From positions 6,492 through 70,491 of the forward strand of contig CAWJXX010000009.1 in assembly GCA_963846945.1 (NCBI GenBank): a stretch of DNA of 64,000 nt, given 5' to 3'. This stretch comes from an uncultured Gemmatimonadales bacterium (lineage in GTDB: Bacteria; Gemmatimonadota; Gemmatimonadetes; Gemmatimonadales; GWC2-71-9). Numbering within the stretch: position 1 is the stretch's first letter; every line of letters starts with the position of its first letter. Made by a program: the position numbers and the translations under genes. The notes below the pieces were generated by a model. That model saw nothing but the letters and a program-made list of their open reading frames with translations. It searched no databases and was not told the origin of the DNA. This document shows, piece by piece, positions 10,836-58,901 of this stretch.

Positions 10836-10901
10836 GGTCTGGCGCACTCGATCAGCATCTCCCCGCAGTGACCGTAATTCCCTGCAGGGGCTGGCAATGC
10901 G

Positions 10902-12968: not shown

Positions 12969-14302
12969 CCAGCATGCGCTGATTATCGGGCAAGAGGCAA
13001 CTGGCCACGGTGCATTGCCCTGCGCCGAATAGTGGCCGTCGGGCAAAAATATGACGGGGCCAACGCTGTCGCGGATGCATCCCGTCAAATCGAGCTCCTG
13101 ATGCCATGGCGTTCCAGGGCCACGAGGACCGAGTCCTTGGCCGCGGATCCGGCGCTGAATAGTCGATTTGACGGGGGAAGTAGACCACGAGTGGGGTGGT
13201 ACCTTCTGCTGAAGCAGCCTGCGCAAAAGCGACCAGCATACTCGGCGTTGATCGACGTCAGCGCAGCGACGTCGTGCTCGCGGTGCGCTTCCTGCCACCG
13301 GACGCGAGAAACCTTAGCAATCGTGAAGAGTCGTACCAGTGTGGCTGCCATTCGCTCGGCCGGTACCCCGGGTCATACTTCCACAAACGGGAGGTCGTGC
13401 ACCGATGAAAGCGATGCAATGGACTCCGGGCTGAATGACGGGACATTCAGCAATCGGAGGCCTTCCGCATTGCTCACGAAGCGCGGTTTCGCGAACGGAA
13501 AGCCGCCTCGGGAAACGTGATGAACGTGTAGACGGAGAGTGACCGGTAAAGGTCATGTGCGATGAACCCGAGGACGGCCAGCCCGGGGATGCCAGGACGA
13601 ACATCGCGCAAATAGCGGAGATACGCCTGATCGACCCCGTATCCATCGACCCCGAAATTCAGCACGATGCATTCGTGCCCAGTGCCGCCGCAAGGTCGGC
13701 AGCCCAGGTGTCGGCGATACGGAGGTGCAGCGCCAAAGGTGAACGAGTCGCCAATCAGCGCAATACGATATGGCGCCGGCGCAATCCGCATAGGCCATTC
13801 CCGGACGTGGGGCGCGGATGCCCTCGGCGCTGCTGAAGTACACGCCATCGCTGCTCTGCCGCGCGGCACCGACCGTCCAGCCCAAAAGGGTATCGCTCAC
13901 GAAATAGGAAAAATTCGCGGGGGCATTCGCGAGCAACGCCGCGTTCCTGGCCGAACTTCGTTCCAATCCCTGCCCCGGAACGGAATGCCGGCAACTGATG
14001 TTCCCCGCGGGGGTCGTGTGAGAACGAAGTCGTACGGCGAGACTCGGCCAACCCAAGGGAAAGCAGGAGGGGAAAGACATTCAGGACCAGCATGAAGCCG
14101 AAATAACGTGGTCTTGATGCCCTGTCGCGAGGTAACGGAGGAAGACCTCGCGCGCCGCAACCCCGCATGTCACGAGCAGAACGAGAAAGCCGCACGCCGG
14201 CGCAACTAGATCTGTTCGGAATCGGCCGGCATAGACGACGGCGCCCAGGAACAGGCCCGCAGCGGAAAGCTCAAGTACGTACAGGGCGGCCAACAGCGCC
14301 AT
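12960..14302 (-). CDS. Membrane-anchored SGNH/GDSL-like hydrolase or acyltransferase (heavily frame-shifted as assembled)
   Basis: The N-terminal hydrophobic segment is in ORF 14081-14302. GDSL block I YRIALIGDSFTFG and VLNFGVDGYG are in ORF 13474-13869. Further collinear fragments run down to ~12960. Boundaries are approximate. Confidence 0.45.
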
Positions 14303-28939: not shown

Positions 28940-29921
28940 GCTCAGCGATAGCCGAGGTAGTTGAAGGAGTTGTAGTACATCTGGTTGAACTGTTTGGTGC
29001 CCTGGGGATAGGCGCCATCAATGCCGGCCTGGAACAGGGTCTCGCCCCGGGTCCGATAGGTGGCATCCCCGGTCTGGCGATAGATCCAGCCCCACTGGGC
29101 GGGGAAGAACATGGTCAGGTCGGGCGAGGGACTCGGGTCGCCGCCGGTGTCCGGATCGCTGCAGGTCCCACTCAGGTACTTGAAGCTCCCCGGACTCCCC
29201 GCCAGCCACTGGGTGGCCCACTGCCAGTCGATGGCCTTCTTCACTGTCTGGACGATCCGCGGATCCGCCTGGAACGAGGTGTAGACCTTGATCAACGCGT
29301 CGTTCTGCAGCGCCAGCATGTAGTTCTTCGTGTAGTTACAGGCGTTCGGCCAGTGGTAGGAGCCGTCCGGCTGCTGCAGCCCGATGGCCGCATTGACGTA
29401 GCCCCGCAGCATCGTGGCCCAGTCCTGCGACGTGTCCTCGAGTTCCCAGGCCAGCAGGGCGCCCAGCGTGAGGCGCTGCATGATCCGCCCCTCGTTGTAC
29501 TGGAACGTCGGATCCGCCATGGAGGCCGGGGGAAAGCCGCCCTGCCGCCCCATGAAGCCCGGCACCGCCACCCGGGAGCGCTCATCCCCCGTCAGCCAGT
29601 AGTGCAGCGCCACCCCCTCCATCTGCGCCTGGTGCGGCGGGGCGCCATAGTTATTCGGCTCCAGATAGTTCGTGCGATAGTCCACCGCGAAGCGGGTCGC
29701 CCGATCCCAGTACTTCGGGTCGCCCGTCCGGACCCAGTACGCATAGTGGTTCATCGCCCGGTCGTAGTAGTCCATCATGGACCAGTCCGCCCCGTACGTC
29801 GCCCACTGCGCATCGGAATACTGGACGAACAAGCTCTCATACTGCGGGAACGCCGAGCCGGCGGCCACAGTGGTCGGCCCCACCAGCTGCGTCGACACCA
29901 GGTAACTGGCCGACGTCGGCA
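28940..29921 (-). repeat. 982-bp block near-identical to 33191-34170 (3' coding ends of paralogs A and B)
   Basis: Direct base-by-base comparison at offset 4251: no difference noticed by eye from 28940 to ~29588. After that there are only a few substitutions and two 1-nt gaps up to 29921. Identity starts 2 nt outside the stop codon. Confidence 0.9.
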
Positions 29922-32703
29922 GCGCGACCGCCGCCGGGATCAGCGGCACCGTACTCTTCGCCCGGTCGCTCGTTCCCGGGGGGTCCCCACGTCCAGCGTC
30001 GCGCTCAACGGCGTGCTCCCCACCGTCGCCTGGAACTGCACCAGGATCGCCCGCCGCGAGCCGTCCGGGTGCTTCCCCTTCAACGCCTCGACGTAGATCG
30101 ACTGCTCCACGCCCCCCAGCAGCACCCGCACCGTTGGCAGGTCCGCGTCCCGCACCTTCCCCGGTGGCAACGGGATCCCGTTGGTCACCAGCACGCTCCC
30201 CGACCCCCCATCCAACCGCCGCACCGTCAGTGCCACCGCGCCCCCACTCGGCGGCGGGGCCCGCCGTCACCGTCACCGCACTCGTGTCCGCCTTCGTCCC
30301 CCCCTGCTGCACCGCGATCACCCGGTACGTCCCCGCCGTCGCCCCCGCCGTATACAGCCCGCCCGTCGAGACCGTCCCGCCCGTCGCACTCCACGTCACA
30401 CTCACGCTCCCCGTCGACCCGTCACTCATCTTCCCCGCCGCACTGAACTGCTGCGTCGCCCCCGCCACGACGCCGCCGTCGCCGGCGTCACATCCACCGC
30501 ACTCAGCGTCGGCGCGGCCGCCGTCACCGCACTCGTGTCCGCCTGTGTGATCCCCTGCTGCACCGCGATCACCCGATAGCGGGTCCCCGCCGTGGTGCCC
30601 GCAGTGTACAGCCCCCCGCTCGTGATCGTGCCGCCCGTCGCACTCCAGGTGACGCTCACGCTCGAGGCACTGCCATCGCTCAACCGGCCCAGGGCCGTGA
30701 ACTGCTGGGTGCGCCCGGCCGCCACCGTGGCCGTCGCACGGAGTCACCTCGACCGCCGTCAATGTCGGCGCCGGCGCCGTGATGGTGATGGCAGCGGTGT
30801 CGGCCTTCGTCCCCCCCTGCTGCGCCGCGATCACCCGGAAGCTGCCCGCCGTCGCTCCCGCCGTGTACAGCCCGCCGCTCGTCATCGTCCCGCCTGTAGC
30901 CGCGTACGTCACCGCGACCGCCGCGGTGCTGCCGTCGCTCATCCGGCCCACCGCCGTGAACTGCTGCGTGGCCCCCGTCTGGAGTGACACAGTCGATGGC
31001 GTCAGCTCGACCGCTGTCAAGGGTCGGCGCCGGCGTTGCAATGGTCACGGCCGCCGTATCTGCCTTCGTGCCGCCCTGCTGCGTCGCGATGACCCGGAAG
31101 GTGCCCGCCGCGTTGCCGGCGGTGTACAGCCCTGCCGTCGTAAACGGCACCGCCCGTCGCGCTCCAACTCACCGACACGCCCGCCGTGCTCGCCGTCACT
31201 CATGCGTCCCACCGCGCTGAACTGCTGCGTGCCGCCGGTCGCGAGGCTCACGGCCGCCGGCGAAACTCGACCGCGGAAGCGTCGGTGCGGGCGCAGAGAC
31301 GGTCACGGCCGCCGTATCAGCCTTCGCCGCCGCCCTGCTGCGTAGCGACCACGCGAAACGTGCCAGCGGTGCTACCGGCCGATATAGGCACCACTGCCGG
31401 TAATCGTGCCGCCGGTGGCCGTCCAGGTCACCGCGACATTTGCGGTGCTCCCATCACTCATCCGGCCGATAGCAGAGAACTGCTGGGCACCACCGGTGAC
31501 CAGGCTGGCATTGGCGGGTGAGACCTCGACCGCTTGAAGCGTGATGGCGGTGGCGGAGTTGCAATCGTGACGGCTGAGGTATCGGCCTTGGTGCCGCCGG
31601 TTTGAACTGCAATCACGCGGAAGGTGCCGCCGGTAGCACCCGCTGTATATGCGCCAGCCGGCGTTACCGTTCCACCGGTGGCGGACCAAGTCACAGCGAC
31701 GCTTGAAGTGCCGCCATCACTCATGCGACCAACGGCCACGAACTGTTGCGCGGCGCCAGGTGCGAGGCTCACGCTCGCAGGACTGATGTCGACCGCCTGA
31801 AGGGTCGGCGCCGGTGCCGTGATTGTGACCGTGGAAGTATCCGCCTTCGTCCCACCCTGCTGCGTCGCAATGACCCGGAATACGCCGGTCGTACTGCCGG
31901 CGGTATATGTCCCGGAGGCGGCAATCGCGCCGCCGGTTGCGCTCCAAGTTACCGGCAGTGCGGAGGTGGAGCCGTCGCTCATGCGTCCGACCGCGGAAAA
32001 CTGCTGTGAAGCACCGGTTAGGAGCATGACGCTCGCGGGCGTCACTTCTACCGCCTGAAGAGTTGGGACGGCCGGACTGATGGTTACCGCGGCAGTGTCG
32101 GCGAATATGCCACCTTGCTGCGCAGCTATCACTCGGAATTGTCCGGTCGTATTCCCGGCGCGGAAGGTTCCGTCGGCCGCAACCGTGCCGCCGCGTGGCG
32201 GTCCAAGTCGCGGAAACGGGGACAGTCGTGCCGTCAGCACGTACGCCGCTGACCGCGAAGGTGAACGCGCCTCCGGGCTGTAGCGTCACAGAGCCTGGTG
32301 CAATGGTGATCGCCGTGAGCGCGGACACGGAACCGGCAACCGTTGCCCGCGAACGGCCCGTGTGACCGGACCGAAGGGCCTTGACGATGTAGTCACCAGG
32401 CGCTGTCGCGCGAAACAGGCCAGTGGTGGTGATAGATGCCCCGGACCCGCCTGAAACGGTCCACTCCACGGGTCCAGATACGTCCGTGCCTTCTATTGTC
32501 TCGTCGGGTGCAACGAAGGCAATGGAATCGCCAGGCGGTACATTGACGGCTTGTGGCGTAATGACGAGAGTATCGAGCGCCGGATCTGGCCCTAGTCCGT
32601 CGACTGGTGCTGGTTCCTGCAGATTGCAGGCGCTGGCAACCGCTGCGATGAGCAGCGAGACGTTGGTGCGGGCGATGGACGATCGGAGCGCGGCGAGTGA
32701 CAT
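28942..32703 (-). CDS. Large surface lipoprotein A: signal peptide/lipobox, ~9 tandem Big_2 (bacterial Ig-like) domains, C-terminal ~480-aa uncharacterised domain (frame changes inside the repeat array)
   Basis: The N-terminus is in ORF 31717-32703 (MSLAALRSSIARTNVSLLIAAVASAC). Big_2 units (VTP...QQFtA.GrMSDGS...V.WSATGG.i...GLYTAG...G.yRVIA) lie in ORFs 31458-32240, 31372-31689, 30680-31150 and 30426-30725. The C-terminal domain is intact in ORF 28942-31041. Confidence 0.75.
30240..32450 (-). repeat. Tandem array of ~258-bp coding units (Big_2 domains) inside gene A
   Basis: Recurrent DNA blocks such as ...ctgctgcaccgcgatcacccggta...gtcgcactccacgtcac...gaactgctgcgt... appear with a ~255-260 bp period. 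About 9 units are present, and neighbouring units are roughly 65-80% identical by eye. Confidence 0.8.
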
Positions 32704-32974
32704 AGATCCTCAGAGCGCGGATAAACCAGCCGAATGGACCGAGCCGCCAAGGGCACGATCTCAAATCGAGATCGGCTCGCTGGCGGCTCGGCTGGCGTGG
32801 CTTCCTGAGAACGGATCCGTAGCCCCGTAGCTCTGCGTCACCGCCTTTCGACGGTTTTGCTCTGAAGCAGCGTGCCTTCACTGCGCCGCGCATGGTGTCG
32901 TGCGGCAGCAGCGAGGACTAAGCTAGCGCTAACGATGTGCTGACACCAACGTTCGTTTTCTAGACACTGTATAG

Positions 32975-44118: not shown

Positions 44119-44996
44119 TCATCCGTCGCCCGTCATCGAGCCATGGCATCCTAGCTCCTGACTGCGCAGCTTCGGGTCGTACAGTTCCCGCAGCGCATCT
44201 CCCACCAGGTTGAAGCCCATCACGGCCAGCCCGATCGCGACGCCGGGAGCCACCGACACCCACGGCGCCACGCGAAGCAGGTCGCGACCGTCGGCCACCA
44301 TGGCGCCCCAGCTGGGCGTCGGCGGCTGCGCGCCCAGGCCTACAAAGGAGAGCGCCGCTTCGGCCATGATCGCGCCCGGCGATGCCGAGCGTGGCCGCGA
44401 CGATGACCGGGCCACGGATGTTGGGCAGCAGGTGTGCCAGAGGATGTGGCCGTCGCGTGCGCCGAGCGCCCGGGAGGCGAGTACGTAGTCGGCGCTCCGG
44501 AGGACCAGCACCTGGCTCCTCACCAGGCGCGCCATCGCGGCCCAGCCGACGATGCCGATGACCACGAAGACCACGGGAAGTGACGGGCGGACGGCCGCGG
44601 CCACGGCGATCAGCAGCAGCAGGGTCGGAAAGGCCAGCGTGATGTCGGCGAGGCGCATGACGACCGCGTCGATCCACTTGCCGTAGTAGCCGGCTACCAG
44701 GCCCATGCGTGACGCCGAGCGAGCGTCGCGACCGACTGGGCGATGAGGCCCACGCCGAGCGAGATGCGGGCACCGTAGATGACGCGGCTCAGGATGTCGC
44801 GGCCCTGGGTATCGGTGCCGAGCCAGTGGTGGCCACCGGGCGGAAGGAGGTAGGCCTTCTGGAGGTCACCAAGAATCGGGCTGTCGGGCGCGATCCATGG
44901 CGCCAGCAGCGCACAGGCGACGACCAGCGCCACCAGCGCCACCCCGAGCTGGAAGAGCGGGTCGCGACGAAGGCGGTCGCGAACGGGCGTCGTCAC
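44119..44996 (-). CDS. ABC transporter permease, peptide/nickel (DppC/OppC-like) family (frame changes as assembled)
   Basis: GTG 44996 opens VTTPVRDRLRRDPLFQLGVALVALVV...GTDTQGRDILSRVIYGARISL (tail of ORF 44694-46310). ORF 44119-44706 has LAFPTLLLLIAV...EAALSFVGLGAQPPTPSWG. Confidence 0.8.
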
Positions 44997-46085
44997 GGTG
45001 CGGGCGCGGTCTCCAGCAGGACGAGCGAGTCGAGCATGCCGGCAAGCTGCTCGGCGAACCGCCTCGCCCCCCGGTCGTCGAAATGGATCGGGATCACCGT
45101 GGATCATAGTACTCGGCACCCTGCAACACCCCACGCTGCCGTGGGAATGAAGACGGCTCCCTGCTCTTCGGCCACCTGGCGCATGACCCTCCGGTAGTCC
45201 GCGTAGCCCTGCGCAACGTACGTCCGCCGGCACGCCGCTGAAATAGTGCTCCCACGCCTGTCGCTCGACGGAATCGCGGGGCGCCTCGGCGTCCCGGAAA
45301 CGTGCACCGGCTCGAGCAGCACCACGCTTGCTCCCCCCAGCTTCGCGGTCAGCGACGTAGATGGTCAGATCGCGACCAAACTGGTCGGCTGCCGCGGCGA
45401 TGCGGCTATCGACCTTGGCCGGATCGCGTCCGGGCACGATAGCCGAGTCGGGCCAGATTCGGGCGACAAGCGCGCGACGCGCCGCGGTCGAGCTTTCCCT
45501 AGAGCAGCGAATGTTGCGACAGCCAGGTGTCCCAGGGTGCGATGGGAATCTGCGCATCCGGCGTGTCGGGGTTGCCGGGCGGAGAGTCGACCAGGCCGTA
45601 GTACAGGTCGTTGTGCCCCTGCAGCAGGACCATGATGTCGGGCTTGAGGCGATACAGGTCGGACTGCAGCCTGATGAAGTTGTCGAGCACGGAATACGAC
45701 GGGCACGCCGGCGTTGAGGACCTCGACCGGCACCCGCGCCCTGGTTGGCGTTCAGCTGGCGTTCCAGCTGCGCAGGCCAGGTGCTGTCGTCCGCCGTCAC
45801 CGCCGCGTCGAAGGTGGTCGAGCCGCCGTCCGCCAGGATGCGGATCGTGCCGGGGCGGTGCGCGACTGTCACCTGCGGGTCCGCGCAGCCCCGAGGAATC
45901 CACGTTGACCCAGCCGAAATAGTGGCGGTCATGGATGAGCGCCGGCTGGAGGCGCTCGTGCAGGTAGAACAGCGTGGGCAGGTGCCGGGCGGGGTCGTAC
46001 GGTGACGCTCGCGCCAGCGCACGGCACCCTCGGCGATGAGCACGGCGGCCACGAGCGGCAGGACAACGAGCAGAAACACCGCCAT
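44993..46085 (-). CDS. SGNH/GDSL-like protein with N-terminal membrane anchor (frame changes as assembled)
   Basis: ATG 46085 opens MAVFLLVVLPLVAAVLIAEG. Fragments include IRILADGGSTTFD, VLNAGVP and KPDIMVLLQGHNDLYYG (ORFs 45499-46254, 45365-45733). The end AEQLAGMLDSLVLLETAPAP stops at TGA 44993-44995, overlapping the next GTG. Confidence 0.55.
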
Positions 46086-46150
46086 CGCGCGCACCGCCGG
46101 CCGGGGCGATGCCTCCGACTGGCTCGAACAGGCAACGAGAGGTCCGGCGA

Positions 46151-46310
46151 CTAGAAGATGGTGTAGATGAACGGGTGCCAGCGCAGAGCCCTGGGCGAAC
46201 ACGAGCAGGGCACCGACCGCGACCATCACCAGGACGATCGGGAGCAGCCACCACTTCTTTCTCACCTTCATGAAGGCCCAGAGCTCACTCATCAGACCCG
46301 TGCCCGCCAT
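46151..46310 (-). CDS. DUF5989-like small membrane protein (one extra base in a C/G run near 46174)
   Basis: Reads MAGTGLMSELWAFMKVRKKWWLLPIVLVMVAVGALLVFAQGSALAP. After dropping one base it continues FIYTIF and stops at 46151-46153. Its size, the KKWWLLP motif and the FIYTIF tail match the small protein that accompanies carbamoyltransferase/SxtJ pairs. Confidence 0.65.
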
Positions 46311-46730: not shown

Positions 46731-48555
46731 TCCGTGGTCTCCTTCCACTCCGGCTGGTGTCGCCTTATCCAGGAGAAAGGACCCGAGCACCAGGTAGTCG
46801 ATGTGGGTGCGCATGAAGCAGGCGTATGCGTCCGCGGGGGTGCAGACGATCGGCTCGCCGCGAACGTTGAACGACGTATTGACGATCACGCCGCAGCCCG
46901 TAAGGCCCTCGAAGGCACGGATGAGGGCATGGTAGTTCGGGTTGGTCTCTGCCGAGACCGTCTGGACGCGTGCCGAATAGTCGATGTGCGTCACCGCCGG
47001 AATGTCGGACTTGCGGAACGTTCAGCTTCTCGATTCCCCACAGGGTCCGCTGCTCCGCGCTGAGCGGTATCTGGCGCTCCTTCTTCACCGGGGCGACGAG
47101 CAGCATGTAGGGCGACTCGCAATCCAGCTCGAAATAGTCGCTGACCCGCTCCCGAAGGACACTGGGTGCGAACGGCCGGAATCCCTCGCGAAACTTGATC
47201 TTGATGTTCATGTCCGCCTGCATCCGGGGGTTTCTCGGGTCCCCGATGATGCTGCGGCTGCCCGAGCGCCCGCGGGCCGAACTCCATGCGCCCGTCGAAC
47301 CAGCCGATGATCTTGCCATCCGCCAGCAGTCCCGGCCACCTCACTGGTCAAGTCGAGTGCGCTCCAGCCGCTGGTAGCCGGCGCCGATGGAAGTCAGGTA
47401 TCGCTCGATCTGCGCATCGCTCGAAGTGCAGGGCCGAGGTAGGCCCCCTTCATCGAATCCTTGCCGGCCGACCACGACGCGCGGCTTGCCGAGTTCCCGG
47501 TGCCAGATCAGCTGCGCAACGCCGAGCGCGCCGCCGGCGTCGCCCGCAGCCGGCTGGATCCAGAGGCGCTTGAACGGTCCCTCCCGCAGGAGCCGGCCGT
47601 TGCCACGCAGTTGAGCGCGACACCGCCCGCCAGACAGAGGTTCTCCAGGCCGGTTTCACGATGGGCCGTACGTGCCATGCGGAGCATGACCTCCTCGCAG
47701 ACCACCTGCACCGACCGCGCGAGGTCCATCTCCTTCTGGGTCAGCTTCGATTCGGGTTCGCGCGGCGGACCGCCAAAAAGGTCGTGGAAGGCCGCGCTGG
47801 TCATGGTGAGACCGGAGAGGTAGTTGAAGTACTTCTGGTTGAGCCTGAACGACCCATCCTCGCGCAGGTCGATCAGCTCCTTGTAGATCAGCTCGACATA
47901 CTTCGGCTCCCCGTACGGAGCCAGGCCCATGACCTTGTACTCGCCGGAATTCACCTTGAAGCCGGTGTAGTACGTGATGGCCGAATAGAGGAGCCCGAGC
48001 GAGTCGGGCCAGCGAATCTCCTTCAGGAGGCGGAAGTCGTTGCCACGTCCAGCGCCCATCGACGCCGTGGCCCATTCCCCGACGCCATCCATCGTCAGGA
48101 TGGCAGCTTCTTCGAACGGTGAGGGGTAGAAGGCGCTGGCGGCGTGCGATTCGTGGTGCTCGGCATAGAGCAGCGAACCCTCGTAGCCGCCCGAGCGATT
48201 CACGCAGGGTCCGGTCCTGGTACAGCTTCTCCTTGATCCAGAGTGGCCCTGCCTTGAGGAAGGAGCCGAAGCCCCTCGGCGCCACGCCCAGGTAGGTCTC
48301 GAGGATCCGCTCGAACTTGAGGAGCGGCTTGTCGTAGAAGCCGACGTGCGCCAGGTCGGCCATCTGGATGCCGGCTTCCCTCAGGCAGTACTCCACCGCG
48401 CGCGCCGGGAAATCCGGGTCGCCCTTGTTCCGGGTGAAGCGCTCCTCGGAGCCTGCCGCAACGATCTCCCCGTCACGCAGCAGCGCGGCTGCGCTGTCGT
48501 GATAAAAGGCGGAGATGCCCAGAATATGCAGGGGTTTCATGGAGACTCGGTTCAC
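46703..48555 (-). CDS. Carbamoyltransferase (NodU/CmcH family; frame changes as assembled)
   Basis: KPLHILGISAFYHDSAAALLRDGEIVAA..EERFTR is in ORF 47656-48555. YYTGFKVNSGEYKVMGLAPYGEP is in ORF 47508-48203. VNTSFNVRGEPIVCTP is in ORF 46326-46994. An alternate frame ends QPEWKETTDWRQQFQLD with the stop at 46703-46705. Confidence 0.85.
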
Positions 48556-49985: not shown

Positions 49986-51167
49986 TCAGCCGGAGCGGGC
50001 TATGTCCGTCGCAAACTCCGTCGCGATCGACCGAAGGCTGCCCACCACCCGCTCCCAGCTCTGCAACGCCTCCACTCGCGCGCGCGCCGCACGACCCATC
50101 GGCGTCGCCACCTTCGCATCGAGCAGCCGCGTGATCCCCTGCAGCACCTCGGCCGGCCGATCGGGATCCACCAGCAGCCCGGTTTCGCCATCGACAACCA
50201 GGTCGGGCATGTCGCTGCCGCGCGCGGCGAGGATCGGCAATCCTGACGCCGCCGCGTCGACGAACGGACTTCCCATCCCCTCGACATCGAGTCCCGGCTG
50301 GCGCGTGAGGCCCACGTATGCAGTGGCCACGTTGAACAGCGCCGGATGATCCGTGTCGGGTACGTTGCCGAGCAGCCGCACCTGCGACACGATCCCGAGC
50401 TTCTTCACCAATGCCTTGAGTTCACCCGACGGATCACCTGCCTGCACTACCGCATAGCGAACATCGAGGCCGGCCGGCGCTGCTGCGACCGCCTGCAGTA
50501 CCGCTTCCACCCCGCGCCAGGGAGGCCGCGTCACGGTGAGCAGCCAGCGGCCCGTCTCCAGGTGGTACTTCCCCCGCACACCGCTCGTATCGATGCCCGG
50601 ATGAAAGAACTCGGGATCGGTGCCAAGTGGCACTATGCGCACACGATCCTCGGCGAGGGAGACGCCCAGTTCGCCAAGGACTGAAAGACAGAGTTCGCGC
50701 GTCCAGGCGTTGCTGGTGACCACCACCGACGCCGCATCGAGCAGGCCGCGCGCCACGCGCCGACGGATCACGGAGCGATGCGTCTGGTGCCGGAGGAGCA
50801 GCAACTCCGGGGCGTGCGCGATGACGCCGAACGGCGTGCCCATTCGCTCGCGCACCCACTTGGCCGGGTACGCGGCGGGCTTGAGCGCACCGCACCAGAT
50901 GAAATCAGGGTCGAGCGCGCGCGTCAGCACCGAGGCATGGCGGGACCACGCGAGAATTCCCTGCAATGTCTTGAGCCGGCGGACCGGTACCGCAAGCCGG
51001 TCCACCCGGTTCGACAGTTGCTCGTCGAATTCTTCGCTTTCCTGTACCTGGCCGGTGCTCACCACGAGTTCGCCGCGGGGCCAGTGCCGTGCAAGCGCAC
51101 CCATCCAGCGCGCGGCGCTGCCATCCGTCGGCGGGAAGTCGTAGGTGAGCAACAGCTGCGGACGCAT
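49986..51167 (-). CDS. Glycosyltransferase family 4 (GT-B fold)
   Basis: Lies inside track ORF 49986-51356, starting at MRPQLLLTYDFPPTDG (51167). The C-terminal GT1 motif is EGMGSPFVDAAASGLPILAARGSDMPDLVVDGETGLLV. Confidence 0.85.
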   Translation of the reverse strand: MRPQLLLTYDFPPTDGSAARWMGALARHWPRGELVVSTGQVQESEEFDEQLSNRVDRLAVPVRRLKTLQGILAWSRHASVLTRALDPDFIWCGALKPAAYPAKWVRERMGTPFGVIAHAPELLLLRHQTHRSVIRRRVARGLLDAASVVVTSNAWTRELCLSVLGELGVSLAEDRVRIVPLGTDPEFFHPGIDTSGVRGKYHLETGRWLLTVTRPPWRGVEAVLQAVAAAPAGLDVRYAVVQAGDPSGELKALVKKLGIVSQVRLLGNVPDTDHPALFNVATAYVGLTRQPGLDVEGMGSPFVDAAASGLPILAARGSDMPDLVVDGETGLLVDPDRPAEVLQGITRLLDAKVATPMGRAARARVEALQSWERVVGSLRSIATEFATDIARSG

Positions 51168-51246
51168 GCGACGCTCCGGCGTGCGGGTCGTGCCCGGTTC
51201 TGACGCTGAAATGTCGCCCGGAGCCGGAGTGTGGGCCAAGGGGTTG

Positions 51247-52110
51247 CTACAAGGTCTCGTAGTTGCGGAACTCGAAGGGCACGCGTCCGGTGAAGGCCTC
51301 CCACCACTGCGACAGGTACATCCGTGGCAGGCCGACGCTGAATGCCGGAGCACCAACCCGGCGTTCCCCTGTCTTCGGCATGCGGGCCGTCACCCAGTCG
51401 CGGACCGCCGCCGGATGCTCACCGGTGAACGGCTCGAGAAAAGGCTGCCAGGGGAGCAGCCTGGCATCGGACGACGACGCCCCGGGGTCCACCACACGAT
51501 TGAACTCGCGCTTCCGGTCCAGGGCCGCCGGCGGACGCGCCCAGCCGTAGTGGAACATCCAGGCGCCGGTGGGCCGCACGCGGATCTTCCGCGGACCAGG
51601 CCAGACCCGGAATCCCTGCGCGTCGCGATACGGCCGGATGTCGAGTGCCGGGTCAAGTCGCAAACAGCGCACCTCCCGGCGATACCACGTCCGCTGCCGC
51701 GCGAGCGTACCCGGATCACCGTAGAAGTGCAGGTAGTTCACCAGCAGCCCTTCGACCCGCGCATCCCGGTCCACATGCTGCACCAGGTCCCGCAGCTCGA
51801 GCGCGCCCATCTCGTGCAGGACTTCGTCCGCCTGGATGTAGATCCCCCAGGGAAACCGGCAGGCGCGCATGGCCCGCAAGGTCTCGTGTGCCAGCATCGC
51901 GAAACCCTGGCTCAAGTCCCATTCGGTCTCGAGGATGCGGATACGCGCGTCCCCGATGCTGCGAATGAGGTCCAGGGTATCGTCGTCCGAGCGGCCGACG
52001 TTCACCACCAGTTCCTCGCAGACCGGCAGGATGGAGCGAATGCTCTCCACCACCGGAAAGTCGAGCCGCGTCGCGTTGCGGATGATGGTGAACCCCGAAA
52101 TTGGAACCAA
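51247..52110 (-). CDS. Glycosyltransferase family 2-like protein
   Basis: Intact 287-aa ORF. MVPISGFTIIRNATRLDFPVVESIRSILPVCEELVVNVGRSDDDT...RILETEWD is typical of a GT2 subfamily found in LPS/core loci. Confidence 0.75.
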   Translation of the reverse strand: MVPISGFTIIRNATRLDFPVVESIRSILPVCEELVVNVGRSDDDTLDLIRSIGDARIRILETEWDLSQGFAMLAHETLRAMRACRFPWGIYIQADEVLHEMGALELRDLVQHVDRDARVEGLLVNYLHFYGDPGTLARQRTWYRREVRCLRLDPALDIRPYRDAQGFRVWPGPRKIRVRPTGAWMFHYGWARPPAALDRKREFNRVVDPGASSSDARLLPWQPFLEPFTGEHPAAVRDWVTARMPKTGERRVGAPAFSVGLPRMYLSQWWEAFTGRVPFEFRNYETL

Positions 52111-52168: not shown

Positions 52169-53071
52169 ATGCACATCGTACTTGTCGCCGATTTCAGGCT
52201 GCCGGTGCACGGCTATGGTGGTACGGAGCGAGTCGTCACCTGGCTTGCGCGCGCACTGGCCCAAATGGGCCACCGCCTCACGCTCATCGCTGCGCACGGC
52301 ACACGCATGCCGGAAGCGACGGTGATCACTACCGACCTGTCGACGCTCCGGCGTCCCGATTTCGACGTGCGCCCGCTGTTACCGTCGGCCTTCGACATCC
52401 TTCACAGCCACCGCGACCTGCCGATAGAACCCTCAGTGCCCTGGGTCTGGACCCTGCACGGCAACCCGCCTGCCGGCACCGTCCTTCCACCGCAGACGAT
52501 CTTCGTGAGCGCCAACCACGCCAGGCGCTATGGTGGCCTGCGATATGTGCACAACGGCCTCGACCTCGCGGACTATCGCTTTCGCCGCGAGAAGGATGAC
52601 TACGATCTCTTCATCGGGCGATTGCACTCGGTCAAGGGCCATCGCCTCGCGCTGGAAGCCACCCGTCGCACCGGGCGACGCCTGGTCATAGCCGGCGGGT
52701 GGCGGCCCACGCTGGGCCGGCGTGTGAGCTACATCCGAAGCGTGGGTGGCGAGCGCAAGGTCCAGCTCCTGGCCGGCGCGCGATGCCTCTGGATGCCGGC
52801 GCAATGGGATGAGCCATTCGGACTGACCCTGATCGAGGCGCTTGCGAGCGGTACACCGGTGCTCGGCACCCATCGCGGCGCCCTTCCGGAGATCATCACG
52901 CCGGACGTCGGCTTCATGGGCGACACCGTGGATGAGCTGGTCGAGCAGGTGGCGTCCATCGGGCACATCGACCCGGACGCCTGTCGCCTCCGGGTCGAGC
53001 AGCAGTTCACGCACCTTCGAATGGCGGAGGGCTACCTGAAGATCTACGAGGCGACGTTGCGCGGAGAATGA
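52169..53071 (+). CDS. Glycosyltransferase family 4 (GT-B fold)
   Basis: Intact 300-aa ORF with MHIVLVADFRLPVHGYGGTERVV and WDEPFGLTLIEALASGTPVLGTHRGALPEII. Confidence 0.85.
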   Translation: MHIVLVADFRLPVHGYGGTERVVTWLARALAQMGHRLTLIAAHGTRMPEATVITTDLSTLRRPDFDVRPLLPSAFDILHSHRDLPIEPSVPWVWTLHGNPPAGTVLPPQTIFVSANHARRYGGLRYVHNGLDLADYRFRREKDDYDLFIGRLHSVKGHRLALEATRRTGRRLVIAGGWRPTLGRRVSYIRSVGGERKVQLLAGARCLWMPAQWDEPFGLTLIEALASGTPVLGTHRGALPEIITPDVGFMGDTVDELVEQVASIGHIDPDACRLRVEQQFTHLRMAEGYLKIYEATLRGE

Positions 53072-53077
53072 AACCGC

Positions 53078-54049
53078 TCATTTCCGCACCGCCGCCAGGA
53101 CAGTCGCGAGGCGATGCATGTAGGTGTGCTCCGCGAGCGCCCGGCGACGCCCGGCCTGCGCCAGCCGGTCCGCAGTCGTCGGGTCCTGCAACAGTTCCTT
53201 CACCAGCTGCTTCAAGTCCGTGCCGCTGTCGAACGTGACCAGTTCCTTGCCTTGATCGAACGCGAGCGGCAGGTCGCGGCGGTTGTCCACCACCTGTGGA
53301 ACCCCGATTGCGGCCAGTTCGAAGGTGCGCTGGTTGCAGCCGGTGGCGGTGCCACCCTCGTTTTCCCGATGAATGTTGACGGCGACGGAGGCGCCGGCGT
53401 ACGCCCGCACGTAGTCGTCGAGCCCCAGGGTTTCGCCGCGGCAATAGTCCTTGAGCGGCGTCTTGCGCCAGCCTGGTCCCCAGATGGCAAGTCCATATTC
53501 GGCCAGCTCGGCGAGCAGTTGCTCCCGCCGCGGCGTCGCGGCGCCGACAAATACCACATTCGAGCGGAACTGGTCCCGCGCTTTCATCGGGCGATGCACC
53601 GAGGGGTCGCATCCGGGAGGCAAGTGCGCCGTGGGCGGACGGGTCGGTCCCCGCAGTTGTTCGACGAGGTCGGTGCCGGGCACAAACAGCGCGTCGTAGG
53701 CCACGCTCACCGCCTCCATCAGCGGAACGGAGCGGGTCTCTCCAATGAACCAGCTGGCCCACACCGCATCAGCGTCCCTGCGGAGGCTGGCCACCATCCC
53801 GGCCGTCAGCTCGGCGCCTTCCACCACCAGCACCAGCTGAGAGCGGTGCTGCAGGATCGCCTTGGACAGCCGCTCCTGCAGGCTTCCGCCACGCCAGCGC
53901 GAGAGCAGGCCTTGCTTCGGCTTGAGATCGCAGGTCGCTACATCGCAGCCGAGGCGTTCGAGTGCGCGCTTGCGCAACCCCGAGTGCCCGCTGGGGTCGT
54001 TCTCGAGGTCGACGATGAGGACGCGGGTTCCGGTGTAGGGCCCGCTCAC
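53078..54049 (-). CDS. CgeB-like glycosyltransferase-family protein (DUF3880/Glyco_trans_1_2-like)
   Basis: Intact 323-aa ORF. The C-terminal half reads NIHRENEGGTATGCNQRTFELAAIGVPQVVDNRRDL...LAEHTYMHRL. It has a 4-nt overlap with the upstream ABC gene. Confidence 0.7.
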   Translation of the reverse strand: MSGPYTGTRVLIVDLENDPSGHSGLRKRALERLGCDVATCDLKPKQGLLSRWRGGSLQERLSKAILQHRSQLVLVVEGAELTAGMVASLRRDADAVWASWFIGETRSVPLMEAVSVAYDALFVPGTDLVEQLRGPTRPPTAHLPPGCDPSVHRPMKARDQFRSNVVFVGAATPRREQLLAELAEYGLAIWGPGWRKTPLKDYCRGETLGLDDYVRAYAGASVAVNIHRENEGGTATGCNQRTFELAAIGVPQVVDNRRDLPLAFDQGKELVTFDSGTDLKQLVKELLQDPTTADRLAQAGRRRALAEHTYMHRLATVLAAVRK

Positions 54050-55899
54050 GCCCGGATCCTGGCAGCGGTCATTGGCATCGCAGGTTCCACCTCGTCACGG
54101 AATTGCAGGTCGTAAAGCCGGCGGTAGAGCCCACCGGCCTCCAGCAGCGCGGCATGCGTGCCGCGCTGGATGATACGGCCCTCGTCGAGGACGAGGATCT
54201 CGTCCGCCTGGCGCACCGTGGCCAGGCGGTGGGCAATGACGAGCACCGTCCGGTTGGCCATGAGCCGATCGATCGCTTCCTGTACCAGGCGCTCTGATTG
54301 CGTGTCGAGCGCACTGGTCGCCTCGTCGAGAATCAGGATCGGCGCATTGCGAAGCAGGGCACGGGCAATGGCAATGCGCTGGCGCTGCCCACCGGAGAGC
54401 CGCATGCCGCGCTCACCGAGGATCGTCTCATAGCCCTGCGGCATCCGCGCGATGAATTCGTGTGCGTTGGCCGCCTCCGCGGCGCGCTCGACCTCGGCGT
54501 GCGTCGCGCCCGGCTGTCCATATGCGATGTTGGCACGGATGCTCTCGTGGAACAGGACCGTATCCTGGCTCACGACCCCGAGGAGTGCGCGGAGTGATGA
54601 GCGGCTCAGTTCCGGCAGCGGCACCCCATCGAGCTTGACCGCACCGGCGGTGGGTTCCCGCAGTCTCGGCAGGAGGTCCACCAGCGTGCTCTTCCCCGCC
54701 CCGGACGGCCCCACCAGCGCGACGACCTGTCCCGGCACGGCGCGGAAGGTGATGTCCTCCAGCACCGGCGTGCCCTTCTCATAGTAGAAACCAACGTGCT
54801 CGTAGGTCAGTTCCCTCCGGAAGGTGGCCTGCCGTGTCGGGCCGTCGTCGGGCTCCAGGATTGGCTCATCGAGCAGCGAGAACACCTTCTCCACGCTGGC
54901 CATGCCCTGCGCCCAGATCGCAGGGAACTGGGAGATGGCCTTGATCGGCGACGTGAGCCGGAGTGTGGAGAGCAGGAAGACGATGATCACTTCAGGGCCC
55001 AGTGAGGCCTGCATGCCGAGAATGGACGGGTGAGTACCGGCGTACACCACGATCAGCACGAGTGCCGCCGCCACCGTCTCGCTCATCGGCGACGTAAGCG
55101 CCGCAAAACGACCGGTGCGGATCACCCGCTTGCGGTAGCGCTCCACCGCGTCATCGAAGAGCGCCTCCTCGGACTTTGTCGCATCGGACGATCGTACCAG
55201 GCGGATTCCCGCCAGCCGCTCGGTGGCCAGGGCGGCGAGCTCCCCTCGCTCGTCGGCCCGCGCCCGCGAGTGCCGCTTGATCAGCCGGGTCACGGCCCGC
55301 AGCCCCAGCACCAATGGGGGCACGACTACCAGCGAGAGCAGGGTGAGGCGCAGCGAAATGCTCGCCAGGATGAACAGCGTCGTTACCAGAAGGAAGACGT
55401 TCCGGATCAGCGTCACCATCGATGCGGTGACGATGCCCTTCGCCTGGTCCGTCTCATTCACCAGCGCCGTCACCAGCACGCCGGTGCGGGTTCGATGAAA
55501 GAATGCGAGGTCGAGGCGCAGCAGGTGATCGTAGAGCTTCTTCCGCAGGTTGGCGACGAGGCCCTCCTGCACCCGGGTGTTCAGCTGCGACGCGCCGTAT
55601 TCCGCAACGTTCTTGAGCACCAGCCCCAGGCCCAGGACCAGCGCCATCCGTGCCACGGCCTGGCCCGGCGTCGCATTCTCGAGGATCGGGCTGAAGGCAT
55701 CGGAGAGCCACTTCTCCAGCTGCGTTGCACCGGCCCGCAGCGGACCGGTTGTGCCGAACAGGTGCTTGAGCAGCGGCACCAGGATGACGACGTTGAGCCC
55801 GTCGAGTGCCGAGGCGATGAACGAGCAGCAGAGCGCCGCGGCGAGCAGCCACCGATACGGACGTGCCAGGGCGAGGAGCCGCCGCGTCTCCGTCGTCAC
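54046..55899 (-). CDS. ABC transporter permease/ATP-binding fusion, MsbA-like lipid/glycolipid exporter
   Basis: Intact 617-aa ORF with six N-terminal TM segments. It has Walker A GPSGAGKST, signature LSGGQRQR and Walker B ILILDEATSALD. Confidence 0.9.
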   Translation of the reverse strand: MTTETRRLLALARPYRWLLAAALCCSFIASALDGLNVVILVPLLKHLFGTTGPLRAGATQLEKWLSDAFSPILENATPGQAVARMALVLGLGLVLKNVAEYGASQLNTRVQEGLVANLRKKLYDHLLRLDLAFFHRTRTGVLVTALVNETDQAKGIVTASMVTLIRNVFLLVTTLFILASISLRLTLLSLVVVPPLVLGLRAVTRLIKRHSRARADERGELAALATERLAGIRLVRSSDATKSEEALFDDAVERYRKRVIRTGRFAALTSPMSETVAAALVLIVVYAGTHPSILGMQASLGPEVIIVFLLSTLRLTSPIKAISQFPAIWAQGMASVEKVFSLLDEPILEPDDGPTRQATFRRELTYEHVGFYYEKGTPVLEDITFRAVPGQVVALVGPSGAGKSTLVDLLPRLREPTAGAVKLDGVPLPELSRSSLRALLGVVSQDTVLFHESIRANIAYGQPGATHAEVERAAEAANAHEFIARMPQGYETILGERGMRLSGGQRQRIAIARALLRNAPILILDEATSALDTQSERLVQEAIDRLMANRTVLVIAHRLATVRQADEILVLDEGRIIQRGTHAALLEAGGLYRRLYDLQFRDEVEPAMPMTAARIRA

Positions 55900-57467
55900 T
55901 TCGCGCTGCGCCTCGGTGTCAGGAGTGCGATGGGCAACACCACTTCCTCCGGTGCCACGCCGCCATGCAGGAAGGCGCCGCGATAGCGGGCCTGGTATTC
56001 CCGCAACTTGGTTGGATAGACGAAGAACCGGTCACCGGTCGCGAGCAGCAGCCGGGTGCCCGGCGCACGCGCCGGCAATCCGTAGCTCGGCAGGTCGTCG
56101 ATCACGAGTGCCGCGTCGCCGTCCTGCGGGCGCAGGTCGTCGCCGAACTTGTAGCGCAGGTTGCTGGTCGCGTCCCGCTTGGCGTAGACGGTCGCCGGGG
56201 TATGGCAGTGGATCGAGCCATGATCGGTGGTAAGCAGCACCGGCACGCCGCGGCGTTCCGCCTCGCGGAGCGCGTCGAGCAGCGGCGACCGCTCGAACCA
56301 GGTGCGAGTGAGGGCGCGCAGCGCCTGCGTGTCACGCGCAACCTCGAACAGGGTGGAGTTTTCCGACCGGCCGTGCGTCAGCTGGTCGATGAAGTTGAAC
56401 ACCAGTGCGGTGACGCCCGGCTGCTGCAGGTGCGCGGGGAGGCGCCGCAGCAGGGCTTCGCCGTCCTGCGCGCTGAAGACCTTCTCGTAGCGCACCGGCA
56501 CCGGCGTCCCGCAGATGTCGCGCAGCTGCTCCACCAGCAGCTGTCCCTCGTGCGCATTCAGGCTCTGTTCGTCCTGGTCGGCCCACCAGCGGGGATAGCG
56601 CTCCTTGATCTCCACCGGAAAGAGCCCGCTGAAAATGGAGTTCCGGGCATACGGAGTAGCGGTGGGAAGAATGGAGAAGTAGTGCGACGTCTCGATGTCG
56701 AACAACTCGCCGATCAGCGGGCGGATCATCGCCCACTGATCGAGGCGGAGGCAGTCGACCACCACCAGCAGCACCTTGCCATGCGCCTGGAGCGCGGGCC
56801 GCAGGAACTCGGCGCCGATGTCGACCGAGAGCGGCGGGCGGTCACTTCGCGACTCGCGCAACCATCCGGCGTAGCTCCGCTGGAGGAAGCGTGCGAAGTC
56901 CTGCCGCAGGCTTTCCTGCAGCGTGCGAAGCGCATCCTGCAGGCCGGGTTCGTCCGCCTGCCCCAGGCGCACTTCCCACTCGGCCAGCTCGACCACGAAC
57001 TCGATCCATTCACGCCAGCCGAGCTGGGCGCCACGGCGCGCCTCGAGCTCGCGAAACCGCGAGGCGAAGTCGCGCGACAGCCGCTGTTGCCGGATCCGGT
57101 CACCCTCGAGCAGCCGCGTGATCACGGTAAGGATCTGCCGCGGATTCACCGGCTTGACGAGATAGTCCGAGATCTCGGCGCCGAGCGCGTCCTTGAACGT
57201 TTCCGGCTCCTCGCTCTTGGTCACCATGACCACGGGCATGGACTGATCGAGCGAGCGAATGGCGCGGAAGAGCTCGAGACCGCGGCGACCAGGCATCTGC
57301 TCGTCGAGGAGGACGACTCCGTAGGGCTGGCGCTGCAGCATGACCAGGGCGTCGTCGCCGTGGGCGCTGGTGTCGACGACAAAGCCCTGTTCCTCGAGAA
57401 ACATCACGTGCGAGGTCAGGCTCTCGATCTCATCGTCGACCCAGAGAATGGACTTGGGGCGTGGCAT
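55896..57467 (-). CDS. Response-regulator receiver fused to PglZ/alkaline-phosphatase-fold domain (PorX-like)
   Basis: Intact 523-aa ORF. The receiver reads ILWVDDEIESL...VVLLDEQMPGRRG...DYLVKP. The PglZ region reads LLVVVDCLRLDQW...TDHGSIH. It has a 4-nt overlap with the downstream ABC gene. Confidence 0.85.
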   Translation of the reverse strand: MPRPKSILWVDDEIESLTSHVMFLEEQGFVVDTSAHGDDALVMLQRQPYGVVLLDEQMPGRRGLELFRAIRSLDQSMPVVMVTKSEEPETFKDALGAEISDYLVKPVNPRQILTVITRLLEGDRIRQQRLSRDFASRFRELEARRGAQLGWREWIEFVVELAEWEVRLGQADEPGLQDALRTLQESLRQDFARFLQRSYAGWLRESRSDRPPLSVDIGAEFLRPALQAHGKVLLVVVDCLRLDQWAMIRPLIGELFDIETSHYFSILPTATPYARNSIFSGLFPVEIKERYPRWWADQDEQSLNAHEGQLLVEQLRDICGTPVPVRYEKVFSAQDGEALLRRLPAHLQQPGVTALVFNFIDQLTHGRSENSTLFEVARDTQALRALTRTWFERSPLLDALREAERRGVPVLLTTDHGSIHCHTPATVYAKRDATSNLRYKFGDDLRPQDGDAALVIDDLPSYGLPARAPGTRLLLATGDRFFVYPTKLREYQARYRGAFLHGGVAPEEVVLPIALLTPRRSAK

Positions 57468-57513
57468 GGCCGAAAGCTAAGCGTGAGGGGCGCGCGAGGT
57501 TACCGTTTAGCCA

Positions 57514-58521
57514 ATGGCACCTCGCATCCTGCTGGTCCGGCTCAGTTCCCTGGGGGACGTGATCCTGACCACGCCCCTGCTCCGCGCCATCCGGACGCGG
57601 CACCCCGACGCCGAGATCGCGTACCTCACCCGCCCGGCGTTTGCGCCACTTCTGGCCGACCACCCCGCCCGGCCCGACGTCCTGACCTTCAATCCGGCGA
57701 CCGAGTCGCTCCGCCAGCTCGCCGACCGGCTGCGGCCCCGGCAGTTCACGCACCTGCTCGACCTCCATGGCGTCACCCGGACACTCATGCTCCGTGCGTT
57801 GCTCCGGGGCAACTGGCGCGGCTACAGCAAGCGACGGCTGGCCCGCTGGACGCTGGTGCACCTCAAGCGCAATCTCTATCGGGACAACGTGCCGGAGCCG
57901 GAGCGCTTCTTCGAGGCTGCGAGGGAGCTCGACGTCGTTCCTGATGGACGCCCCGCCGAGGTCGGCATTGCCGCGGACGCCTCCAGTCGCGCAGCCGGGT
58001 GGCTCGCCAGTCGCGCGCTCGGGTCGCGGCCGATGGTCGCGGTGGCACCGGGAGCGGCCCATCAGACGAAGCGCTGGCCGGTCGATTACTGGGAGAGGCT
58101 GGTGCAATTGCTGACCGATACGGGATTCGACGTCGCGGTCCTGACCGGCGCCGACTACGCAGCGGCCGGCGCCGCCATCGCGGCGGCGGGAGGATCAAAC
58201 GCGGCATCGACCGCAGGAGCGCTGGGCCTGCAGGAAACGGCCGCCATCTGCCGGTCGAGCAGCGTGGTCGTCGCGGGCGACACTGGCCTCATGCACCTGG
58301 CGACCGCGGTCGGCGCGCCCGTCGTGGCCTTCTTCGGCCCCACGGTGCGGGCCTTCGGTTTCTTCCCCTATCGTGCGCGCACGGCAATCCTGGAGCGTGA
58401 ACTTGCCTGTCGCCCCTGCAGCGCCCAGGGCGGACCCCGCTGTCCGCTGGGCCACCATCACTGCCTGCGGGAGATCACACCGGACATCGCGCTGGCGGCG
58501 ATCCGATCGCTTACCGCATGA
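57514..58521 (+). CDS. Glycosyltransferase family 9 (LPS heptosyltransferase-like)
   Basis: Intact 335-aa ORF with RILLVRLSSLGDVILTTPLLRAIRTRHPDAEIAYLT and GDTGLMHLATAVGAPVVAFFGPT. Confidence 0.85.
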   Translation: MAPRILLVRLSSLGDVILTTPLLRAIRTRHPDAEIAYLTRPAFAPLLADHPARPDVLTFNPATESLRQLADRLRPRQFTHLLDLHGVTRTLMLRALLRGNWRGYSKRRLARWTLVHLKRNLYRDNVPEPERFFEAARELDVVPDGRPAEVGIAADASSRAAGWLASRALGSRPMVAVAPGAAHQTKRWPVDYWERLVQLLTDTGFDVAVLTGADYAAAGAAIAAAGGSNAASTAGALGLQETAAICRSSSVVVAGDTGLMHLATAVGAPVVAFFGPTVRAFGFFPYRARTAILERELACRPCSAQGGPRCPLGHHHCLREITPDIALAAIRSLTA

Positions 58522-58901
58522 GCCCCATTGAATCGGAAGACCCGCTGCTCGAGTTGCTGTCGGCCTCGGACCGGGGCCAGCGGCGGGAGGGCCTGTTTGC
58601 AGTGTGGCTCACCATGCGGGTGGCACTCGATCACGGACTCACGCCGCCGCTCCCGGAGCGCGCCCAGCGACGCCGGGTCGATGCACTGGAGCGCAGACTG
58701 GCCCGGTTGAGCCTTGCGGCGCCCCTGCGGCGCGCGCTGGCCGGAACGCTCGCCCTGTTGCGCGACGGCGGGAGCCGGGAGGCGGCCATGGCGCTGCACC
58801 AGCTTGTCGTACCGGTGCGTGAGACGGTGGGGCCGGAAGCCGGGGACGTGATTGCGCGCGCCGCACGGCAGGCGAAGGGAACGGTAAGAGGTGAGAAGTA
58901 A
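58518..58901 (+). CDS. Hypothetical Arg/Leu-rich protein
   Basis: 127-aa ORF whose ATG overlaps the GT9 stop (ATGA). I recognise no family. Its 3' end runs into a purine-rich tandem repeat. Confidence 0.4.
   Translation: MSPIESEDPLLELLSASDRGQRREGLFAVWLTMRVALDHGLTPPLPERAQRRRVDALERRLARLSLAAPLRRALAGTLALLRDGGSREAAMALHQLVVPVRETVGPEAGDVIARAARQAKGTVRGEK

Follow-up and report, generated by a model that had tools for sequence, protein, structure and literature searches.

A porX gene overlapping the gene for an MsbA-like exporter: a gene order conserved across Gemmatimonadota

Why would the gene for a response regulator of type IX secretion overlap the gene for an exporter of the MsbA type? The question is raised by a 64,000-nucleotide stretch of contig CAWJXX010000009.1 from an uncultured Gemmatimonadales bacterium (hereafter the window), in which porX is followed on the minus strand by the gene for an MsbA-like ATP-binding cassette (ABC) exporter and by a glycosyltransferase gene. 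In Porphyromonas, both virulence and secretion by the type IX system (T9SS) require PorX, and we know of no regulatory connection described so far between this system and lipopolysaccharide (LPS). The arrangement is not due to chance, because the porX-exporter junction recurs in all 32 informative Gemmatimonadota loci. The proteins themselves come from known families; the novelty lies in how their genes are arranged, in a porX-msbA(-lpxL) operon confined to one phylum.

The three genes are intact and occupy the minus-strand coordinates first assigned to them. The porX gene (55896-57467; 523 aa, ATG start) encodes a receiver, a three-helix bundle and a PglZ/alkaline-phosphatase-fold phosphodiesterase domain. 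The exporter gene (54046-55899; 617 aa, GTG start) encodes an MsbA-like ABCB-type half-transporter that is probably a lipid A-core flippase, and the third gene (53078-54049; 323 aa, GTG start) encodes a glycosyltransferase with the Pfam domain PF13524 (Glyco_trans_1_2). The preliminary description joined these genes by 4-nt ATGA overlaps at 55896-55899 and 54046-54049. The positions hold, but the letters read GTGA at both, and the exporter and PF13524 genes therefore have GTG starts. At the porX/exporter junction GCG AAG TGA overlaps GTG ACG ACG, and at the exporter/glycosyltransferase junction CGG GCG TGA overlaps GTG AGC GGG. Motifs resembling AGGA or GAGG lie 7-11 nt 5' of both GTG starts. 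The G+C content at third codon positions is 0.83-0.87 for all three genes, as expected of real genes in this genome.

No terminator-like site was found between the three genes on the minus strand; the terminator scan is itself uninformative, with its sole site on the wrong strand and a number of sites below chance expectation. A sigma-70 consensus scan found no promoter-like site, although a consensus match says little for this phylum. The 46 nt between the porX ATG (57467) and the ATG of a divergent GT9 gene (57514) are as described earlier, and this intergenic region (57468-57513) is the presumed promoter region. Because of the stop/start overlaps, the Shine-Dalgarno-like motifs and the lack of a terminator between the genes, porX, the exporter gene and the glycosyltransferase gene would be co-transcribed and translationally coupled.

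Conservation of this order was followed through a one-genome-per-species scan with a 50-member PorX alignment, which returned 80 loci. Gemmatimonadota account for 32 of these (PorX identity 49-93%), including Gemmatimonadaceae, Gemmatimonas and Longimicrobiales. The other 48 (36-44%) come mostly from other phyla of the Fibrobacteres-Chlorobi-Bacteroidetes (FCB) group, with two labelled Poribacteria and Limnocylindria. They include metagenome-assembled genomes labelled Flavobacteriales and Bacteroidales, but not Porphyromonas gingivalis or Flavobacterium johnsoniae themselves. Three Gemmatimonadota loci were too short downstream and were left out, and the informative set for this phylum comprises 29 species-representative genomes and three metagenome contigs (PorX identity 49-94%). 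The exporter gene lies downstream of porX on the same strand in every locus of this set (32/32), whereas it is next to porX in none of the 36 loci from other phyla that have at least 2 kb of downstream sequence. The loci from other phyla show just two remote matches to the nucleotide-binding domain, several kb from porX. The ortholog neighbourhood analysis proposed in the preliminary description thus finds the adjacency kept phylum-wide, and not unique to one genome.

The junction is also tight. If the exporter gene is taken to begin at the in-frame start codon closest to the end of porX, 29 of the 32 loci have a gap of -8 to +34 nt and two have one of 255-309 nt, and the gap widens to about 1.9 kb in one locus where a penicillin-binding-protein gene is inserted. 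By a measure that does not depend on the choice of start codon, the tblastn alignments of porX and the exporter lie 12-63 nt apart in 28 loci.

Other neighbours vary. Upstream of porX in Gemmatimonadota there may be a GT9 gene, a small open reading frame (ORF), or genes for a DnaB_C-like ATPase, a TonB_C-like protein or AcrB; the divergent GT9 gene occurs only in loci L001-L007 and L013. The position directly after the exporter gene is taken by a homologue of a conserved 287-aa ORF in L005, L006 and L013, and a GT4 gene follows the exporter in Gemmatimonadaceae. A gene for an LpxL-family lipid A late acyltransferase (lpxL) comes after the exporter in 16 of the 32 loci, directly so in L029-L035, and in the deepest branches the order is exporter, lpxL, then DUF3108 and a PEMT-like gene. 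The three metagenome contigs (two with 94% and one with 80% PorX identity) have a divergent GT9 gene and then porX, the exporter and the PF13524 glycosyltransferase. The porX-exporter pair is invariant while these other neighbours change, and it is therefore the conserved core. The three-gene unit first described does not extend through the phylum, since the PF13524 gene stands directly after the exporter only in L001-L004. The ancestral Gemmatimonadota arrangement was most likely porX-msbA-lpxL, and the PF13524 and GT9 neighbours are, as judged from this distribution, recent additions.

In other phyla, porX has different company. The tsaE gene is directly downstream in 30 loci and is followed by tsaB, rimI and accD. 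This porX-tsaE-tsaB(-rimI-accD) order is common to several phyla and has a median porX-tsaE gap of 10 nt; we know of nothing that connects PorX with t6A tRNA modification. In 12 loci (L037, L042, L052, L054, L056, L057, L059, L060, L063, L069, L074 and L075), 11 of which are from Latescibacterota, Eisenbacteria, Ignavibacteria and Zixibacteria and one of which is labelled Poribacteria, the gene immediately upstream of porX encodes a histidine kinase and has the same orientation. In these loci PorX is therefore no orphan, and the adjoining kinases are candidate cognate partners. In five further settings (L045, L065, L070, L073 and L076; one labelled Chlorobiaceae and two Ignavibacteria) the gene directly upstream on the same strand is sprA, which encodes the T9SS translocon (TIGR04189, 1077 bits for L073). 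Four Flavobacteriales-type loci (L049, L071, L080 and L082) have porX pointing away from a cluster with lpxD and lpxC/fabZ at its end. This cluster consists of genes for a family-less 411-aa protein, LpxD and a bifunctional LpxC/FabZ, and it represents a second lineage in which porX stands beside lipid A genes.

None of the neighbours from other phyla (including SprA, the kinase, TsaE/TsaB, LpxD and an LptD-like protein) has a tblastn match in the window or in the Gemmatimonadota loci, so the Gemmatimonadota context is a real lineage-specific rearrangement. The view that this context differs from the one in which PorX has been studied is upheld against the 48 loci from outside the phylum, with their tsaE/tsaB genes downstream and a kinase, sprA or divergent lpxD upstream.

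On sequence and predicted fold, the product of the first gene is a bona fide PorX orthologue. Pfam assigns Response_reg to residues 7-116 and PglZ to residues 231-424, and the protein scores 522.3 bits on the NCBIfam equivalog T9SS_RR_PorX (NF052313; cut-off 300) over profile positions 2-513 of 513. The PorX entries 8TED and 7PV7 in the PDB align with its residues 3-519 at E~1e-107. When its AlphaFold2 (AF2) model (predicted local distance difference test score, pLDDT, 72.6; predicted template modelling score, pTM, 0.71) is used in a Foldseek search, the top 17 matches are all PorX crystal chains (E~1e-39, template modelling score 0.67-0.70), and the matches that rank after them are isolated receiver domains (E~1e-6). 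PorX family membership, as originally proposed, is therefore borne out by the equivalog score, the full-length PDB alignment, the fold search and 12 functional residues. Five of these form the receiver pocket (D11, D12, D55, T83 and K105, corresponding to D11, E12, D54, T82 and K104 in F. johnsoniae). The others are the catalytic threonine T271 and the zinc ligands D238, D361, H365, D415, H416 and H501, which correspond to T271, D237, D360, H364, D414, H415 and H499 of the F. johnsoniae reference. The lists of the catalytic threonine and the ligands of the two zinc ions are those published for PorX (PMC11320123, PMC9757075). Loss of metal-binding residues from the PglZ domain had been named as grounds for rejecting a role for this protein, and all metal-binding and catalytic residues are in place. 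The receiver and catalytic/zinc positions are invariant or nearly so in 50 diverse members of the family, which is compact (at 50% clustering, 302 representatives have E<=1e-30). The closest homologues, with 77-94% identity, are named Gemmatimonadales.

The enzymatic chemistry of this domain bears on what PorX could contribute to the operon. If the PglZ domain acted on an envelope lipid or glycan phosphate, such as that of a lipid A precursor or a lipid-linked sugar, then it might feed or edit the substrate of the exporter. The position of porX within a lipid A/LPS operon would suit this idea, and so would the existence of lipid-active enzymes in the alkaline-phosphatase superfamily. The active-site cleft of PorX has been described as fit for a large, physiologically unassigned substrate (PMC11320123, PMC9757075). 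However, the same seven catalytic and zinc residues are found in enzymes that cleave pGpG and oligoadenylates: PorX enzymes bind pGpG, as seen in a crystal complex of the T272A mutant, and cleave both cyclic and linear oligoadenylates in vitro (PMC9757075). The window protein is also 40% identical to PorX from phyla that lack the exporter context, and the secondary structure of its AF2 model contains no membrane segment or signal peptide. Because the active site matches that of the P. gingivalis and F. johnsoniae nucleotide phosphodiesterases residue for residue, a lipid-active PglZ domain is very improbable, and the suggestion in the preliminary description that the domain takes part in envelope lipid or glycan chemistry finds no support.

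With slightly better than even confidence, we favor the explanation that the three genes are the head of an operon for lipid A/LPS-core assembly and export, and that this operon is kept to coordinate a PorX-controlled envelope/secretion program with the supply of LPS. A single message would yield both PorX and the exporter, and how efficiently translation re-initiates at each junction would determine their ratio. The exporter would be the MsbA of this lineage and flip lipid A-core once LpxL has acylated lipid A. PorX would act as it does in Bacteroidota: an unlinked kinase would phosphorylate D55 and dimerization would follow; its output would be zinc-dependent cleavage of oligonucleotide signals, protein-protein contacts or both. 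A need to match the envelope/secretion program to LPS supply would explain why the operon has been retained. Porphyromonas anchors its T9SS cargo covalently to anionic LPS (A-LPS) (PMC8545088), and 1-dephosphorylation of its lipid A depends on a working T9SS (PMC12704123). The anchoring of this cargo to LPS makes a direct functional link between PorX and LPS export plausible by analogy. The four Flavobacteriales-type loci with divergent lpxD-lpxC/fabZ provide an independent hint of a connection between PorX and lipid A.

Several observations weigh against this explanation, and they concern the identity of the exporter, the meaning of the gene order and the presence of a T9SS. The exporter contains the Pfam domains ABC_membrane and ABC_tran, with a Walker A motif (GPSGAGKST) at 397, a signature motif (LSGGQ) at 501 and a Walker B motif (ILILDEATS) at 521. 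Its best NCBIfam model is MsbA_lipidA (TIGR02203), but the score of 500.2 bits is below the cut-off of 602, and a HepA-family model is nearly as good (469 bits, cut-off 725). When the whole protein is compared with the PDB, MsbA and Sav1866 score almost alike. The loop between the first and second transmembrane helices (TM1-TM2) is lineage-specific and about 35 residues longer than in MsbA. Together with the glycosyltransferase genes that surround the exporter gene in the window, these features would be expected if the protein were not the housekeeping MsbA but a dedicated exporter of another glycolipid, a polysaccharide or a peptide (of the HepA/DevBCA type or a type I secretion component), with PorX as its specific regulator.

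The membrane domain alone gives a different ranking, with 13 MsbA sequences first (E 5e-23) and Sav1866 after them (6e-19). Exporter residues K96, R166 and K320 align with R78, R148 and K299 of Escherichia coli MsbA, basic side chains in contact with the phosphates of lipid A. Across 30 exporter orthologues K96 and K320 never change, whereas position 166 is variable among them. Orthologues of the exporter are named MsbA by JGI and in one NCBI record. The recurrence of lpxL as the next gene also speaks against a dedicated exporter, as does the lack of a gene for a membrane-fusion or outer-membrane partner in the operon, and we consider this alternative improbable. The MsbA-like character noted at the outset is supported at the level of the membrane domain. 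In terms of sequence, the protein is an ABCB-type half-transporter with a membrane domain nearest to MsbA, and it is probably a lipid A-core flippase.

Only gene order speaks for a functional link between PorX and the exporter, and the proposal that PorX acts with or regulates the exporter is an inference from it. A PorX-docking motif on the exporter was considered and rejected, since the C-terminal tail shows no phylum-wide conservation. The main rival to the explanation we favor is inherited synteny: porX may have been placed before msbA once, in the ancestor of the Gemmatimonadota, and a compact, overlapping operon would then be hard to break. The lack of a conserved docking feature agrees with this account. 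In other phyla, porX stands equally tightly before unrelated housekeeping genes (tsaE in 30 loci; tsaB, rimI and accD), and the tsaE-tsaB-rimI tRNA-modification genes after porX therefore indicate that it is habitually found in unrelated housekeeping operons. Inheritance alone is harder to reconcile with the survival of the junction between orders, down to 49% PorX identity, when all other junctions within two genes have been reshuffled. Four of the 32 loci (L023, L027, L028 and L032) have loosened the porX-exporter junction and yet kept the two genes close together, and independent lineages have put porX beside lpxD-lpxC/fabZ or sprA. On balance, synteny without functional meaning appears rather unlikely, though it deserves the most attention among the competing explanations.

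The third difficulty is the T9SS itself. The sequence covered consists of the window (64 kb) and about 0.5 Mb of Gemmatimonadota flanks, which extend 8-10 kb around porX in each related locus and are a small share of each genome. No T9SS gene or C-terminal sorting domain was found in the window or in these flanks, which is no evidence that the genome lacks them. No T9SS family was matched when the window's large or unannotated ORFs, along with those flanking porX in deep-branching loci, were compared with Pfam and NCBIfam, and no T9SS sorting domain was among the 25 most frequent families, each with more than one member, in a pooled NCBIfam scan of 88 C-terminal fragments. A scan of metagenomes for the invariant SprA motif IAYIDDFE in G+C-rich codons gave 36 loci, 10 of them sprA-like, and found sprA only in other phyla, such as Delongbacteria. 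The most G+C-rich of these 10 contigs (L093, 67.8% G+C) carries a full-length sprA of 2358 aa at 5978-13054 on the plus strand, and the 90% cluster of this protein includes one named Candidatus Delongbacteria; T9SS translocon genes are therefore also found in high-G+C candidate phyla. For Gemmatimonadetes, the literature goes no further than to say that a T9SS 'may' be present (PMC11285876), and an older census places the system in Bacteroidetes alone (PMC4793230). We found no paper that names PorX together with Gemmatimonadota, and the papers that name both PorX and MsbA do so merely in passing.

If PorX in Gemmatimonadota is not primarily a T9SS regulator, then it could instead be a direct controller of lipid A-core export, with an ancestral FCB PorX that coordinated the supply of outer-membrane lipid and LPS. 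Phosphorylated PorX, or a nucleotide signal that PorX destroys, would gate the co-translated MsbA-like flippase, and T9SS control would be the elaboration of this ancestral job in one lineage. The trace of such a history would be the lipid A, LPS and fatty-acid genes that stand beside porX in separate lineages (msbA-lpxL; lpxD-lpxC/fabZ; an LptD-like gene; accD). We regard this version as quite unlikely, and the coordination of a PorX-controlled envelope/secretion program with LPS supply remains the explanation that we favor.

The remaining genes around the operon are mostly glycosyltransferases. The PF13524 match in the third gene covers residues 175-319 (113 bits, cut-off 25, E 1.5e-32). CgeB is also a member of this family. 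The protein has no NCBIfam model and no PDB relative, and its N-terminal half matches nothing in these searches. The divergent GT9 gene (57514-58521, plus strand) encodes a glycosyltransferase of the heptosyltransferase family, with a Glyco_transf_9 match of 99 bits (cut-off 22, E 2.8e-28). It is below the cut-offs of both NCBIfam heptosyltransferase models (I, 120 bits versus 185; II, 113 versus 135). Its stop overlaps by 4 nt a small conserved ORF of 127 aa (58518-58901, plus strand) that has no Pfam or NCBIfam match and has homologues at the same position in nine Gemmatimonadales loci. A possibly related small ORF is divergent from porX in 10 Gemmatimonadaceae loci.

On the other side, a convergent GT4 gene (52169-53071, plus strand; Glycos_transf_1 and Glyco_transf_4) ends 6 nt from the operon. 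Beyond it are the conserved 287-aa ORF (51247-52110, minus strand), which has homologues by tblastn and no Pfam or NCBIfam match, and a second GT4 gene of the same envelope-glycan cluster (49986-51356, minus strand; Glycos_transf_1 and Glyco_transf_4), which has homologues downstream in 10 loci. Besides these two GT4 genes, the wider surroundings contain a patatin-like gene, with yebC-ruvCAB on the other side.

Several observations were made elsewhere in the window. A c-di-GMP-I riboswitch (RF01051) is predicted at 32779-32871 on the minus strand with 54.9 bits, versus a gathering score of 35. It lies upstream of ORFs with Big_2/Big_4 Ig-like domains (31717-32703, 31458-32240 and 28942-31041, all on the minus strand). 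These ORFs overlap in different frames and therefore may be one large, frameshifted gene for a surface protein. The dinucleotide pGpG is the breakdown product of cyclic di-GMP (c-di-GMP). Since PorX enzymes bind pGpG and a c-di-GMP-I riboswitch is present, this genome may hold both ends of the pathway.

Judged by eye, two minus-strand ORFs that overlap in different frames (47508-48203 and 47656-48555) seem to be halves of a single carbamoyltransferase, split perhaps by a frameshift or a sequencing indel. The minus-strand ORF at 44694-46310, with DUF5989 at its N terminus and an OppC_N segment at its C terminus, also looks like a frame problem, and clean long ORFs are scarce between about 38 and 49 kb. 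The G+C content is mostly 0.60-0.66 in the first 37 kb of the window and 0.65-0.73 beyond. The lower-G+C part has genes of polysaccharide type, for a UDP-glucose dehydrogenase, an FkbH-domain protein, an MBOAT protein and an epimerase, as well as genes for a PQQ-type dehydrogenase and an HNH endonuclease, and this part of the window may be an acquired island.

The phylum-wide porX-msbA(-lpxL) operon, with overlapping genes in most genomes, offers a concrete place to probe a regulatory connection between the T9SS and LPS. Gemmatimonadota has cultured members (Gemmatimonas), and PorX and the exporter are probably produced from one message. If members of this phylum lack a T9SS, then a PorX function independent of the T9SS would be shown. 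If the gene order is merely inherited synteny, then what is gained is a neatly annotated LPS locus and no more. Supported by comparative gene order, the operon is a testable handle on roles of PorX beyond transcription of T9SS genes.

The locus was compared with known systems. The PglZ proteins of bacteriophage exclusion (BREX) systems share the PglZ/alkaline-phosphatase fold with the window PorX (NCBIfam BREX_PglZ_3, 92 bits, cut-off 250; a distant Foldseek match). They have no receiver domain, unlike the window protein, and BREX genes are absent nearby; the locus is no defense system. MsbA of E. coli, Salmonella and Vibrio (3B5W, 3B5X and others) shares with the exporter its half-transporter form and type IV exporter fold. 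In E. coli, msbA is linked to lpxK, and the linkage of the exporter gene to lpxL resembles this msbA-lpxK pair in that both involve late lipid A steps. The exporter is unlike MsbA in that its gene is preceded and overlapped by a response-regulator gene and its score falls under the curated MsbA cut-off.

In the other FCB phyla (Bacteroidota, Ignavibacteria, Latescibacterota, Eisenbacteria, Zixibacteria and others), porX likewise leads a tight, same-strand housekeeping cluster, but there the next genes are tsaE-tsaB-rimI-accD and there is no ABC exporter. The PorX proteins of P. gingivalis (PGN_1019; 7PV7) and F. johnsoniae (Fjoh_2906; 8TED, 8P6F) have the same length and three-domain architecture as the window protein. 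Structural alignment gives 32-34% identity, with the seven catalytic and zinc residues and the receiver pocket identical. Like these two regulators, the window PorX is an orphan, with no histidine kinase gene in the window flanks or in any Gemmatimonadota locus. It differs from them in that its gene comes first in an operon that also encodes an MsbA-like exporter; among the phyla sampled, Gemmatimonadota alone have this arrangement.

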